A stretch of DNA of 64,000 nt from positions 3,612,578 through 3,676,577 of the forward strand of contig OY970315.1 in assembly GCA_963716525.1 (NCBI GenBank). The letters run 5' to 3'. The stretch comes from an uncultured Actinomycetes bacterium. Lineage in GTDB: Bacteria; Actinomycetota; Acidimicrobiia; IMCC26256; PALSA-610. The notes under the pieces are model-generated. The model was not told where the DNA came from and did not search any database. It saw only the letters and a program-made list of their open reading frames with translations. This document shows, piece by piece, positions 8,895 to 49,782 of this stretch. Positions within the stretch are counted from its first letter, which is position 1; each line of letters opens with the position of its first letter. The position numbers were made by a program, and so were the translations under genes.

Positions 8895-9050
8895 TCCGAC
8901 TGTCCGGCAACGATCACGGCTTTCGTAGCCGAGGGTTTGAACAAGAAGACGATGGTGCTCGAGCGATCGGTCACGCGAAAGGGCGTCTGACCGGGGTGAA
9001 CGTTGTAATTCTGACAACGCAGTGGACCTAAAGGGACAGCTTTCAAACCC
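8895..9050 (+). repeat. att-like module family A, copy 1: left arm GGGTTTGA...ATGGTG (8933-8957), 64-nt spacer, right arm GTGGACC...TCAAACCC (9022-9050)
   Basis: Near-identical to 49077-49248; arms recur separately at 23207-23235 and 23930-23953; outer ends are inverted repeats. Confidence 0.75.
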
Positions 9051-9480
9051 TGACAAGCCGCTGAAATCCCTTGTGCCACAAGGGTTACACGCCTCACGAC
9101 GGGCGCGCACGGTCACTCCGGCGCACCCGAAACAGCCATCGGGAACTGCAGCTTCGCGACCTTGCGAAGAAACGGGACACCATTCAAACCCCGCGCCCGA
9201 ACCGACTCGTGAAGCGCCAACCAAACACATTCGCGGCGCTCCCCCACCGTCCGCGCCCCACCGCACGCAGCGCCGACTTCGTACCGCAGATATCGACGCA
9301 CTCGTCGACCGCTACCGCGCCGGCGCCACCATCAAAGAGCTTGCCGGACGCTTCAGCATAAGCCGCACCACCGTGATGGCGCACCTCGACCGCCTCAACG
9401 TGACGCGACGCGCGGCCAGGAAGCAATGGGACGTCGACATGCTGAGCCGGGCGGCCCGGTTGTACGCCGACGGCCATTCC
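9022..9480 (+). pseudogene. Double-HTH protein family A, truncated by IS21
   Basis: QRRLRTADIDALVDRYRAGATIKELAGRFSISRTTVMAHL; homology to 23207-23764 stops at the IS21 left end. Confidence 0.8.
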
Positions 9481-9656
9481 TGTCGGCGTTCAAGTAATCC
9501 CTCGCGGTGGGGTGGGTTCGTTCGAGTTATCCCTCGCGGGGTCGTTCACGTAATCCATCGCGTGGGCGGTGGTGGTGAGCGGTGTCGTGGGGTCCGTCTG
9601 GTTGGTTCCTTGTCCGTGTAGCCCTCGGCTCGTCGTGTTGGCGAGCGGAGGATCTG

Positions 9657-11237
9657 ATGGCGAGGAGAACTTTCGAGATGATCGACGTGGTGGAGGTCTT
9701 GCAGCATTGGCATGCGGGCCGGAACAAGACCGAGGTCGGCGCCAGTGTCGGCGTGGATCGGGGCACGGTCCGTAAGTACGTCGCCGCGGCGGAAGCCGCC
9801 GGGTTCGTGCCCAACGATCGGGTGATGTCGCGCGACGACTGGCTCGTGCGTGTCGCGGAGTGGTTCCCCGAGCTCGTCGACGCGAAGGTCCGCTCGTCGA
9901 CGTATCCCGATATCAATGTGCACCGCGGCCTGATCGAGACGATGTTGGAGACGAACACGGTCCAGACTGTGTGGCAGCGCCTGCGCGACGAACACGCTCT
10001 GACGGCGGGGATCACGAGCTTCCGTCGTTACGTGTGGTTGGAGTTCCCGGACCGCCCGACACCAGATCAGGTCACGGTGTGGCGGCCGCCGGTCACGCCG
10101 GGCGACGAAGCCCAGATCGATTTCGGGTATCTCGGTCAGTGGCTCGATCCGCTAATGGAGCGCGTCCGGCGCGTGTGGGCGTTCGTGATGGTCATGGCTG
10201 CGTCGCGCCACATGTTCGTCCGGCCGATCTTCACGATGGATCAGACGTGCTGGGTCGAAGCGCACGTCGCCGGCTTCGAGTTCTTCGGCGGTGTCCCGGC
10301 ACGCCTCGTGCCCGACAACCCGAAAACGGCGGTGTGCAAACCGGACTTGTATGACCCGAAACTGAATCGTGCGTACGCGGAACTCGCCGCGCACTACGGC
10401 TGCCTGATCGACCCGGCGCGGGCATCGAAACCGAAAGACAAGCCGCGTGTGGAACGTCCGATGCCCTATATCCGTGACAGTTTCTGGCGCGGCCGCACCT
10501 GGGAGTCTCTCGATCAGATGCAAGCCGAAGCGATCCGCTGGTGTGTGCGTGTCGCCGGGCGGCGCCGTCATCGTGGCCTCGACGGCGCCGCGCCCCACAC
10601 TGTGTTCCTCGCCGCCGAAGCCGACCAGCTACGACCGTTGCCGGTGACGGCGTTCGAACTCGCGGCGTGGGCGACACCCAAGGTCGCGCCTGACTGTCAC
10701 GCCAAGATCGCCGGCGCCCTGTATTCGGTGCCGTGGCGTTGGATCGGCACGACTGTCGACGCGAGGATCACGGACCGGCGCGTCGAGATCTTCGTCGGTG
10801 GCGTGTTGATCAAGACGCATACGCGTGTCGAGCGGGGCCGCCAGACCGACTGGGCCGATTACCCGCCCGAGAAGATCGCGTTCTTCCAACGCACGCCAGT
10901 GTGGTGTCGACGGCGCGCCCGCGAACTCGGACCGCATGTCACGACCGTGATCGACGGGCTCCTGGAAACCAACGCGTTGCATCGCCTGCGCTCCGCGCAA
11001 GGGATCATCGGCCAAGCCGACAAACATGGAGCCGAGCGGCTCGACCGTGCTTGCGAACGTGCGATCGCGGTGGGTGACCCGTCGTATCGCACGATCAAAG
11101 GGATCCTGGCGGCTGGGACCGAGACCAACAGCGACGAAACGGCTCAGCATCGATCTCACGACCCGAACATCGCGCATCTACATGGCCCCGAAACGCTCTT
11201 CGCCAACAGTGACCGTCTCGATGAGGGGGTTGCGTGA
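9657..11237 (+). CDS. istA: IS21 transposase
   Basis: N-terminal HTH, AQIDFG, LVPDNPKTAV, PKDKPRVER, YSVPW. Confidence 0.95.
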   Translation: MARRTFEMIDVVEVLQHWHAGRNKTEVGASVGVDRGTVRKYVAAAEAAGFVPNDRVMSRDDWLVRVAEWFPELVDAKVRSSTYPDINVHRGLIETMLETNTVQTVWQRLRDEHALTAGITSFRRYVWLEFPDRPTPDQVTVWRPPVTPGDEAQIDFGYLGQWLDPLMERVRRVWAFVMVMAASRHMFVRPIFTMDQTCWVEAHVAGFEFFGGVPARLVPDNPKTAVCKPDLYDPKLNRAYAELAAHYGCLIDPARASKPKDKPRVERPMPYIRDSFWRGRTWESLDQMQAEAIRWCVRVAGRRRHRGLDGAAPHTVFLAAEADQLRPLPVTAFELAAWATPKVAPDCHAKIAGALYSVPWRWIGTTVDARITDRRVEIFVGGVLIKTHTRVERGRQTDWADYPPEKIAFFQRTPVWCRRRARELGPHVTTVIDGLLETNALHRLRSAQGIIGQADKHGAERLDRACERAIAVGDPSYRTIKGILAAGTETNSDETAQHRSHDPNIAHLHGPETLFANSDRLDEGVA

Positions 11238-11998
11238 TGCGCGCCCATCAACTCGAACCGGCTCTGCGCACGTTGAAGCTGTCGGGGATGCTCGAAACGC
11301 TCGATGTCCGCCTCGCTCAAGCCAACGCTGGTGAACTCGGCCACCTCGAGTTCCTCCAATCGCTCTGCGAAGACGAGATCGCACGCCGAGACGCCGCCGC
11401 GCTCGGCCGACGAGTCCGCAACGCCCACTTCGAGACCACGACCACGCTCGAGGAGTTCGACTTCGCGTACAACCCCAAGATCCCCGCCGCGACAATCCGA
11501 GACCTCGCCACCCTGCGCTTCATCGACAAGAACGAAGCAGTGATCCTGCACGGCCCCGTCGGTGTCGGCAAAACCCACATCGCCCAAGCCCTCGGTCACC
11601 TCGCCTGCCGACGCGGACACGCGACCGTGTTCGCCAAAACGAGCAGGCTCCTCGCCGACCTCGCCGGCGGCCACGCCGATCACACCTGGACCCAGCGGCT
11701 ACGCCGCTGGGCGAAACCCGATGTACTCATCCTCGACGACTTCGCCATGCGTGACTACACCACCGGCCAAGCCGATGACCTCTACGAACTCGTCACCGAA
11801 CGGGGCCGCGGCGCGCTCATCCTCACGAGCAACCGCAAACCCGCAGACTGGTATCCACTCTTCCCCAACCCCGTCGTCGCCGAGTCCATCCTCGACCGCC
11901 TCGTCAACGCCGCGCACACCATCGCCATCACCGGCCGCAGCTACCGACCACAACGACGACCCACCGACCAACACGCGAAAGGAACCGCCAACGACTAG
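11237..11998 (+). CDS. istB: IS21 helper ATPase
   Basis: Walker A GPVGVGKT, LILDDF, TSNR, ILDRL; start overlaps istA stop. Confidence 0.95.
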   Translation: MRAHQLEPALRTLKLSGMLETLDVRLAQANAGELGHLEFLQSLCEDEIARRDAAALGRRVRNAHFETTTTLEEFDFAYNPKIPAATIRDLATLRFIDKNEAVILHGPVGVGKTHIAQALGHLACRRGHATVFAKTSRLLADLAGGHADHTWTQRLRRWAKPDVLILDDFAMRDYTTGQADDLYELVTERGRGALILTSNRKPADWYPLFPNPVVAESILDRLVNAAHTIAITGRSYRPQRRPTDQHAKGTAND

Positions 11999-48996: not shown

Positions 48997-48998
48997 TT
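48875..48998 (+). pseudogene. rve-type integrase/transposase fragment overlapping the PPTase tail
   Basis: Alternative frame ENLTWGYRCIHGELTTLGITIAASTVWATLKNAGID. Confidence 0.65.
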
Positions 48999-49076
48999 CT
49001 GCGTTATGTCGACCATCAGAGTCGTGGCCCTAAAGCACAAGCACCTCAGAGTCCTGACGTTCTGCACTCGAACTCG

Positions 49077-49248
49077 TCCGACAGTCCGGTGACAATCGCG
49101 ATTGCGTCCACGATCACGGCCTGCCTAGCCAAGGGTTTGAATAAGAAGACGATGGTGCTTGAGCGATCGGTCACACGAAACGGCATCTAACCGGGGTGAA
49201 CGTTGTAATTCTGACAACGAGTGGACCTAAAGGGCAGCTTTCAAACCC
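49077..49248 (+). repeat. att-like module family A, copy 3
   Basis: Left arm 49133-49157, spacer and right arm 49221-49248 all match 8933-9050. Confidence 0.75.
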
Positions 49249-49782
49249 CGCGAAACCGTTGACATCCCTTGCGCCACAAGGGTTGTGGGCGACATCGGCG
49301 GCGCACCGAGCCCCTCGGACACGTCGGAAATCGCTCCGCGGGCGTCGCGGAACGCGGCCGTCTGACGAATTGGGACACTATTCAAACCCCGCACTTGAGC
49401 CGACCGGCGAGCAAGTCTCTCCGGACGCGTTGGGCGGACTCCCCCACCTCCCGCAGCGCATCGAACGCAGCGCCGACTTCGCGGTGTTGATGTCGATGCA
49501 CTCATCGACGACTACCGCGCCGGCGCCACGATCATGGACCTCGCCGGACGGTTCGCGATCAGCCGAACCACCGTGATGGCGCACCTCGACCGCCGCAACG
49601 TGCAACGACGCGTGGCCGTTAGGGAATGGGACGACGACGCGCTGAGCCGGGCCGCCCGCTCGTACGCCGACGGCTCCTCCCTCGCCCATATCGGCGACCA
49701 GTTCGGCATCGATCCGCAGACCGTCGCCAACCGCCTCCGCAGGGCTGGTGTAGCGATCCGACCTCGACCCGGGTGGAAATGA
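49221..49782 (+). pseudogene. Double-HTH protein family A, frameshifted as read
   Basis: YRAGATIMDLAGRFAISRTTVMAHL...QFGIDPQTVANRLRRAGVAIRPRPGWK. Confidence 0.75.

Follow-up and report, generated by a model that had tools for sequence, protein, structure and literature searches.

Genomic islands that grow by accretion are already known. SCCmec and the recombinase-less elements like it (staphylococcal cassette chromosome, SCC) sit at the 3' end of rlmH/orfX. Here we describe a stretch of 64,000 nucleotides, the window (genome positions 3612578-3676577), from an uncultured Actinomycetes bacterium whose genome is a single contig of 4.59 Mb with 70% GC. The window carries six modules with a gene, or the remnant of one, for a protein with two helix-turn-helix (HTH) motifs, next to sequences that resemble the attachment (att) sites of large serine recombinases (LSRs). 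We favour, with a probability of about 0.68, tandem accretion of LSR elements and their decayed, integrase-less derivatives at the 3' end of a tRNA-Val(cac) gene, the window being the left (older, far) half of the composite island. Compared with the stacking described so far, the serine recombinase, the tRNA targets, the apparent mimicry of the tRNA T-loop and the conserved HTH gene in first position are different, and the non-autonomous units are unusually tidy.

As with SCC, an LSR would drive integration at the 3' end of a single conserved gene, composites stand in tandem and some units have no recombinase of their own. However, SCC uses another LSR clade and a protein-coding target instead of a tRNA gene, and has neither an HTH first gene nor T-loop mimicry. 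In the portion used here, the description of the Dehalococcoides ssrA islands, which are tandem serine-recombinase islands, also mentions CcrB and SCCmec (McMurdie et al. 2011, PMC3146451). As in our case, that portion describes tandem islands downstream of a t(m)RNA gene with an LSR at one edge and some units without an integration module, which are interpreted there as cis-mobilisable. The Dehalococcoides target is, however, the T-loop of tmRNA; a direct repeat of 20 bp occurs there, and the integration module has six genes, among them one for a second small recombinase. Here, crossover would take place at the last nucleotides of the tRNA, there is no long repeat, the open reading frame (ORF) of the recombinase continues into the tRNA, and one companion gene only is conserved, a double-HTH ORF that overlaps the P' arm.

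Accretion and the cis-mobilisable elements (CIMEs) of ICESt1-type elements are reviewed in PMC5704250. In the sections of that review used here, CIMEs are att-bounded units that lack integration genes and stand in tandem with an element provided with such genes, as at the present locus; those systems rely on tyrosine integrases and identical core repeats, in contrast to the serine recombinase and attP-like joints found here. Serine recombinases of Mycobacterium AICEs (the integrative and conjugative elements of actinomycetes) integrate into tRNA-Leu, and tRNA targeting by serine recombinases is called rare (Ghinet et al. 2011, PMC3218068). By description, our elements resemble these AICEs in that a serine recombinase would integrate them into tRNA genes; the part of that paper used here describes neither arrays nor HTH modules. 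Phage integrases of the Bxb1 type (see PMC1470463) also act on short sites, about 50 bp long, in which inverted outer motifs enclose a short core. Unlike at those sites, the target half-site here is the acceptor and T arm of a tRNA, the P arm lies inside the coding end of the recombinase gene, and family A (see below) has a second P'-type site 141 nt downstream.

Double-HTH modules and their joints

The six modules all lie on the + strand, belong to two families (A and B) and stand at or beside short inverted arm motifs. Each is an attP-like joint with a P arm, a GTGG or GTCGG core and a P' arm overlapping the start codon of the HTH gene. In window coordinates the modules are:

9022-9480, +: module A1; first HTH kept, cut by an IS21 insertion at 9480/9481; core GTGG at 9022-9025, P' arm to 9050, second 18-nt site at 9174-9191
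12204-12312, +: module B1; 3' remnant with the second HTH only, 86% identical to 18294-18401
18000-18443, +: module B2; intact 147-aa double-HTH ORF
~19700-19902 (HTH part from ~19710), +: module B3; attL-type joint, unrelated left flank and 5' part of the HTH ORF
23207-23764, +: module A2; intact 185-aa ORF
49221-49782, +: module A3; holds the core, a P' arm in which 1 nt is deleted, the second site and the double HTH; one frame change
9033-9050 and 9174-9191, 23218-23235 and 23359-23376, 49231-49247 and 49372-49389, +: paired 18-nt sites in the family-A ORFs

The joints span 8905-9050, 17932-17990, 23125-23235, 23902-23953 and 49105-49250. Their parts are:

8905-8957, +: joint J1, LSR-tail-like stretch ...TITAFVAEGLNKKTMV, with GGTTTGAA at 8934-8941 and TGGTG at 8953-8957
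8958-9021, +: conserved spacer of J1, with the box GAGCGATCGGTCACGCGAA at 8961-8979, CTGACC at 8987-8992 and the palindrome AACGTTGT-N7-ACAACG at 8999-9019
17932-17990, +: joint of B2, a compact 59-bp attP-like site GGTTCCAATAGCG-N34-CGTTATCGAAACC with the core ...CCTGA GTCGG...
23125-23206, +: left side of joint J2a, the palindrome AACGTTGT-N7-ACAACG and about 85 nt resembling the 3' flanks of tRNA-Ala(tgc) and tRNA-Ala(ggc)
23902-23953, +: orphan LSR-tail-like P arm, GGTTCGAA at 23931 and TGGTG at 23949-23953, no P' arm after it; 89% identical to 49105-49160
49105-49220, +: left side of joint J3, LSR-tail-like ...TITACLAKGLNKKTMV, GGTTTGAA at 49134, the conserved box and the palindrome

Left arms starting with GGTT are found at 8934, 17932, 23931 and 49134. 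Those at 8934, 49134 and 23931 have the motif and spacing of LSR tails, translate to ...GLNKKTMV and have 18 of 18 nt in common with the tRNA-Val(cac) flank. The tail stretch of J1 is 90% identical to 49105-49219 and matches the tail of the island LSR beside tRNA-Val(cac) at 23 of 27 nt; the features of its spacer recur in junction rows of five other contigs (nine rows aligned). The 29-nt right arm of family A, GTGGACCTAAAGGGACAGCTTTCAAACCC, is present at 9022 and 23207 and, with one nucleotide deleted, at 49221. Ungapped, it has two matches in the window against 0 expected (100 shuffles). The right arm of family B, ...CGTTATCGAAACC, lies at 17978-17990, and a variant precedes B3, which is 81.5% identical to 17986-18180. 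A search of the whole genome with TTCAAACCC returned 14 copies; 8 of them are in the island, where each lies at an A module or at tRNA-Val(cac). While the P' arm is invariant in all nine aligned junctions, the HTH proteins encoded there are only 35-61% identical.

Family A contains 18-nt sites of the form GGGACrsywTTCAAACCC. Two direct copies exactly 141 nt apart were found in 11 of 18 junctions from this genome and metagenome contigs, the other seven having the first site only. In several elements the paired copies are identical within an element and different between elements. Both sites are encoded within the N-terminal 85 residues of the protein, for which AlphaFold2 predicts disorder (residues 1-85 of A2); residues 87-173 are predicted to form two three-helix HTH motifs. 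Pfam assigns HTH families only and gives no catalytic domain; B2 matches HTH_7 with 34 bits (cut-off 23.8; 3.1e-8) and HTH_28 with 6.8e-7. Foldseek with the AlphaFold2 model (mean pLDDT 66.7) returned no match at E <= 0.001. Our guess, with the odds somewhat against it, is that the element encodes this protein as a DNA-binding accessory or regulator; it may be a directionality factor, with the palindrome or the paired 18-nt sites as its target.

The HTH protein could instead be what moves the modules, as small transposable or self-propagating elements, or the modules could be paralogous regulators duplicated with their neighbours. Some database sources label homologues 'transposase-like', and the fold is similar to the bipartite HTH known from Tc3, Mos1 and paired domains, though every match has E > 0.001. 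We find this hardly credible for a protein in which only HTH families are recognised: module edges consist of tRNA-flank and LSR-tail sequence, neither terminal inverted repeats nor target duplications were found around the modules, and the neighbours of the six modules are mutually unrelated.

Decayed tRNAs were considered as a source of the P' arm or the J1/J3 spacer and rejected, as no arms pair by eye. ARAGORN and Rfam (E <= 1) gave no RNA at the modules, the only Rfam match being a ZTP riboswitch. In the window ARAGORN also made one doubtful call, a 101-nt tRNA-Ser(cga) at 38852-38952 (-) within the biosynthetic cluster, which may be false, other over-long calls having been made elsewhere in the genome.

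An earlier note, written from the letters of the window alone, had described much of this anatomy. Its six double-HTH modules in two families on the + strand are all present, its remnant at 12205 that has lost the 5' end is B1, and its GGTT arms are where it placed them. It had also put right arms ahead of the ORFs; the arms exist, but that of family A forms the first ten codons of the ORF. The cargo it listed between modules was recovered, with an RHS protein, a DUF4760 protein, a weak Zn-ribbon, a non-ribosomal peptide synthetase (NRPS)-like cluster and hydrolases, and transposon ends and target duplications, which it had named as the alternative, were not found around the modules, as stated above.

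Recombinases reading into tRNA genes

Five PF00239 matches in the genome correspond to four genes, of which three are LSR-sized and each adjoins a tRNA gene (genome coordinates):

2637291-2639003: LSR gene beside tRNA-Val(tac)
1044052-1045827: LSR gene beside tRNA-Ser(gga)
3738188-3739883: LSR gene beside tRNA-Val(cac)

The LSR at tRNA-Val(tac) (P0022) is intact, with Resolvase (PF00239, 9.2e-34), Recombinase (PF07508, 8.7e-10) and Zn_ribbon_recom (PF13408, 2.5e-12) domains. The LSR at tRNA-Val(cac), at the right end of the island, matches this paralogue over residues 7-570 in at least three frames. All three tails read into the tRNA: ...KGLNKNTLV/GGRGLEPPT at tRNA-Val(cac), ...RLKKQTMV/GAGRLERPT at tRNA-Val(tac) and ...WGLKDFNL/AEGVGFEPT for the remaining one (slash between tail and tRNA). 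Six homologues in relatives (L077-L082) do likewise at tRNA-Arg, Pro, Ala, Ser, Leu and Lys, so that 9 of 9 LSRs examined terminate at the 3' end of a tRNA or continue into it. None of the nine has a stop codon of its own before the tRNA, and the acceptor and T arm, in reverse complement, supply the last 9-13 codons; clade members therefore end in ...G(L/F)EP(P/x)T-like sequences. The tail motif GGTTYKAR-N11-TGG, present in eight of the nine, appears to mirror the T-loop. Together, LSR tail and tRNA form a 44-bp quasi-palindrome, GGTTTGAA-N28-CTCGAACC, whose right motif is the T-loop and which occurs at only two sites in the genome, both LSR-tRNA junctions.

P-type half-sites of serine integrases are about 5 bp longer than B-type half-sites (half-site geometry after Rutherford and Van Duyne). 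The P' arm motif TTCAAACC lies 16 nt from TGG, and the T-loop motif of tRNA-Val 11 nt from TGG; family B shows the same kind of offset, of 4 nt. This offset matches the P-type versus B-type geometry of Bxb1-type sites. Judged from sequence, the arm motifs GGTTTGAA and TTCAAACC appear to imitate the T-loop, at a distance from the core about 5 bp greater than that of the real one.

Two other, simpler elements of this genome show both ends. In the one at tRNA-Val(tac), the LSR is next to the tRNA; the far end, at a distance of 42 kb, carries a family-A module, and TGGTGG is common to both junctions. Low-GC DNA runs on past this module, so that the flank is not native chromosome. The recombinase ORF and the HTH ORF (2637291, 2680002) are in one frame across the shared TGGTGG, and a compact excised circle of this type would encode a single recombinase-HTH fusion. 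No fused protein scored among 8000 longer candidates, which is weak evidence, and long open frames around HTH matches in L017 and L023, considered as fusions, were rejected as high-GC artefacts. An 89-nt junction query for the empty site of this element had no match in two related genomes (G001 and G002).

The second element, an island of about 10 kb at tRNA-Pro(cgg), has a family-B P arm (P_B) at the tRNA and the P' arm (P'_B) with a family-B HTH gene at the far end. The sequence beside the tRNA reads ...GSNNDPEVSPE in translation, and the gene upstream of it is cut by IS21. The left half of the B2 joint matches the 3' flank of tRNA-Pro(cgg) and the right half the far end of its island; B2 is exactly P_B-core-P'_B with the shared core GTCGG, and hence an attP-like joint. 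Just past the far end of this island (module B4) lies a tyrosine-integrase fragment with one internal TGA, 998989-999279 (-), which may be a trace of an older, different island at the same tRNA. Overall, the att sites are short (44-59 bp) with inverted half-site motifs, and share a core of only TGGTGG or GTCGG, with no long direct target repeat.

In family A the core is preceded by the palindrome AACGTTGT-N7-ACAACG, which also abuts tRNA-Ala(tgc) and tRNA-Ala(ggc) in this genome and tRNA-Val(tac) in metagenome contigs L064 and L059. Orthologous tRNA-Ala(tgc) loci from three genomes agree only from TGGAGACG onward, indicating that the palindrome is inserted DNA and that crossover lies to its right. 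Its left arm, CGTTGTAA, is 13 nt before GTGG, the same spacing as that of the motif in LSR tails, and we read the palindrome for this reason as a probable working P-arm half-site. In our reading, crossover would fall at the terminal nucleotides of the tRNA, GTGG in family A and GTCGG in family B.

The shape of the palindrome also recalls a core site at which a tyrosine recombinase would act with an overlap of 7 nt; GGTTTGAA and TTCAAACC would then be arm-type sites and the link to LSRs secondary. One inverted and two direct 18-nt repeats flank the palindrome, the direct pair with the 141-nt distance given above for 11 of 18 junctions, an arrangement reminiscent of arm sites, and the tyrosine-integrase fragment mentioned above lies just past B4. 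Nevertheless, all six PF00589 matches of the genome lie outside the island, none in or next to it, and the loop of the palindrome varies between sites of one genome. The palindrome is missing from family B and from 9 of 9 LSR-tRNA junctions, and the point at which the orthologous tRNA-Ala loci part is exactly TGG, which lies to the right of the entire palindrome; the left arm of the palindrome is as far from GTGG as the LSR tail motif. We regard this explanation as very improbable.

A further, distant double-HTH paralogue was observed at 1862-2302 (-) of the genome, 1.8 kb from tRNA-Ala(ggc) (4594464-2), the 3' flank of which bears the palindrome; this could be the decayed form of a small, similar element at the start point of the assembly.

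Two recombinase tails had been proposed by the earlier note as search targets. GLNKKTMV has a near match in the end of the island LSR and a relative at tRNA-Val(tac), and GSNSDPKV a counterpart in the sequence beside tRNA-Pro(cgg). Absence of any recombinase with such tails had been among the refuting conditions of the note; since recombinases of this kind exist, the condition does not apply and its interpretation is supported. The same note had inferred mobilisation in trans by a recombinase not encoded in this stretch. Indeed, no PF00239 or PF00589 match lies inside the window units, but the LSR was found in the same island and not elsewhere in the genome. Its term 'integron-like' holds as an analogy only: the array shares with integrons a single strand, promoter-less looking units, one fixed growth end and structured recombination sites in between, whereas an IntI tyrosine recombinase, attI and a common cassette promoter are lacking here, no attC was recognised and the units, of 0.75 to ~25 kb, hold whole operons. 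Rfam gave no match on the joints at E <= 1 (presence of an attC model in Rfam unchecked), and the anatomy of the joints differs from that of attC.

A probable composite island at tRNA-Val(cac)

The low-GC island covers about 121 kb, from window position ~6160 to tRNA-Val(cac) (genome 3,739,843-3,739,919), 63 kb past the window end, and the 3' end of the tRNA is directed into it. GC drops from ~0.72 to ~0.64 at ~6160, the island having 0.62-0.665 and its surroundings 0.71-0.73. Synteny with two same-genus genomes breaks at window position 6159 and restarts at tRNA-Val(cac); the interval holds 11 kb and 33 kb of unrelated DNA in these genomes, with neither module nor recombinase.

The tRNA-proximal 78 kb extends from A3 to the LSR, A3 being the probable far end of an LSR-carrying element. 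A relaxase (Replic_Relax 7.3e-42) and a protein like type IV coupling proteins (TrwB_AAD_bind 1.4e-7) were looked for and found, with ArdA (5.2e-39), 2-10 kb upstream of the LSR; XRE genes also precede the LSR. The A3-to-LSR element looks like the youngest element, conjugative or mobilisable. DNA to its left would, in the accretion reading, represent older units that have lost their recombinase and been struck by insertion sequences (IS).

According to this reading, repeated site-specific integration at the 3' end of tRNA-Val(cac) would have built the island, the integrase belonging to an LSR clade that targets tRNA gene 3' ends. The recombinase gene would be last in the element, its 3' end serving as the P arm, and the double-HTH gene first, its start serving as the P' arm. 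A new arrival would recombine with the junction of the resident element and leave an attP-like joint (P arm, core, P' arm with HTH gene) between units. Older units would lose the recombinase, be broken by IS21, ISL3, IS4/5 and IS3 insertions and persist as integrase-less units. The other features of the window, from left to right, are:

6160-8904, strand not assigned: leftmost low-GC segment (Rfam, Pfam, synteny, GC), with a ZTP riboswitch and genes for serine hydroxymethyltransferase (6327-7865, Pfam) and a GNAT protein (7954-8772, Pfam)
9481-12065, +: IS21-family insertion with IstA (9582-11237) and IstB (11234-11998) by Pfam; multiple terminal repeats
12066-12203, +: ISL3-type transposase C-terminal stub and end, labelled from reading the sequence by eye without a library scan
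12495-17666, -: RHS-repeat protein, cargo (RHS_repeat 6.8e-49, DUF6531)
19161-19640, -: DUF4760 protein, cargo
20190-21930, -: IS4/IS5-family transposase gene in two identical copies, within a tandem duplication of 934 nt
22714-22974: Zn-ribbon, weak match
23995-48996, strand not assigned: NRPS-like biosynthetic cluster with condensation, AMP-binding and PP-binding domains, dioxygenases, an aminotransferase and a phosphopantetheinyl transferase
50144-54504, -: two identical IS3-family copies around a repeat-rich CHAP-like gene

Several of these features were of separate note. The ZTP riboswitch (6266-6350; 56.6 bits, gathering score 39) lies directly upstream of the serine hydroxymethyltransferase gene, both within the low-GC island and outside the conserved chromosome. 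The IS4/IS5-family duplication is a perfect 934-nt tandem repeat at 20156-22025. At 50113-54504 a 100%-identical IS3-family pair flanks a gene that contains three repeats of 273 nt and matches CHAP weakly, an arrangement that looks like a composite transposon. M23 and CHAP hydrolases follow after 51.8 kb, and putative secreted or cell-wall hydrolase genes, including an M23 peptidase, contain in-frame tandem repeats at 55605-56729 (165 nt x6), 58032-58993 (~177 nt x5-6) and 62998-64000 (~351-360 nt x3).

Recurrence, integrase-less units and possible gene capture

Among 5.8 billion clustered proteins, 19 relatives of the HTH protein were found, eight of them of exactly 186 aa, and HTH matches occur in 13 of 41 related genomes, this one included. 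A search for related loci in genome contigs gave a single distant locus, L039. From metagenomes, 30 loci were fetched with up to 10 kb of flank, many on contigs below 3 kb. Among these, L041 has four same-strand HTH copies, L064 three copies about 1 kb apart and then tRNA-Val, and L059 two copies and then tRNA-Val. By reading of the translations, without a Pfam scan, the ~1-kb units at L064:1214-5829 carry toxin-antitoxin-type genes (YoeB/YefM-like, nucleotidyltransferase/HEPN-like and PIN-like). Plasmid records gave no match to the HTH module, and four phage records matched through the 29%-identical HTH of homing endonucleases. A full-text literature search (titles, abstracts) returned no description of the double-HTH module or of the tail-into-tRNA arrangement.

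Several observations weigh against accretion of LSR elements with subsequent decay. For none of the units was an excised circle, an empty site or a polymorphism seen, and no att-like sequence was recognised at the left edge of the island (~6160). Recombination between attP and attL or attR is not known to be usual for LSRs, so that the accretion step needs explanation. The element at tRNA-Ser has neither an HTH module nor a clear P' arm at its far end, and the 11.8 kb downstream of the tRNA hold no copy of the tRNA-Ser 3' end. The island LSR may be dead, unless the assembly carries indel errors. Frame changes, at least three of them in this gene, also break module A3 and several NRPS genes, and assembly indels fit as well as real decay; the assembly, though a single contig, is 89.7% complete by marker genes. 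Joints J1 and J3 have an extra ~64 nt between tail motif and core, containing a box that is conserved as DNA and not as protein and for which we offer no explanation. The LSR-tail-like stretch and the box are also found in junction rows L040, L042, L013 and L041:15528. Together with J1, J3 and the orphan arm at 23902, this makes seven junctions with about 100 nt of LSR tail and no LSR. Such tail-only remnants are odd for independent decay, and a dedicated non-autonomous family fits them better.

Accordingly, the units may not be mere wrecks: they could be dedicated integrase-less cassettes, each with a P' arm, one double-HTH gene, 0.3-25 kb of cargo and a short P arm, captured successively at the tRNA-proximal site. 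LSRs specific for tRNA ends would move them in trans, and the system would be a serine-recombinase counterpart of the integron array. Besides the seven tail-only junctions, A2 and the orphan arm form a unit of 0.75 kb, and in L064 each ~1-kb unit (HTH stub and putative toxin-antitoxin-type genes) ends in the palindrome, the last of which abuts tRNA-Val. A tblastn search with two LSR queries (E <= 1e-5) detected no LSR in any of the 31 fetched loci, although these are short and an LSR could lie beyond them. We nevertheless consider such cassettes unlikely. Movement would have to be assumed for them, IS elements and frame changes occur throughout the window units, as decay predicts, and the HTH family, at the size given above, is small.

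Accretion of LSR elements followed by decay remains the reading we prefer. A broader proposal, which we put forward only tentatively, is that tRNA-end-specific LSRs run a gene-capture system: integrase-less cassettes with a tRNA-mimicking P' arm fused to the double-HTH gene and a short P arm would be inserted serially at the tRNA-proximal junction and reshuffled in trans, giving arrays with toxin-antitoxin genes, RHS toxins and biosynthetic clusters. As a bolder corollary, the recombinase-HTH fusion of the circle would be split by integration, and would constitute a built-in directionality switch.

Tandem accretion would explain why a single block of 121 kb next to a tRNA gene unites defence genes, an RHS toxin and a biosynthetic cluster of 25 kb. 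The findings point to a recombinase clade that targets the most conserved part of tRNA genes, with att arms that apparently imitate it. The short att sites and the tRNA targets are of interest for genome engineering with serine integrases. If they are mobile, the integrase-less units would be the serine-recombinase counterpart of CIMEs or integron cassettes.

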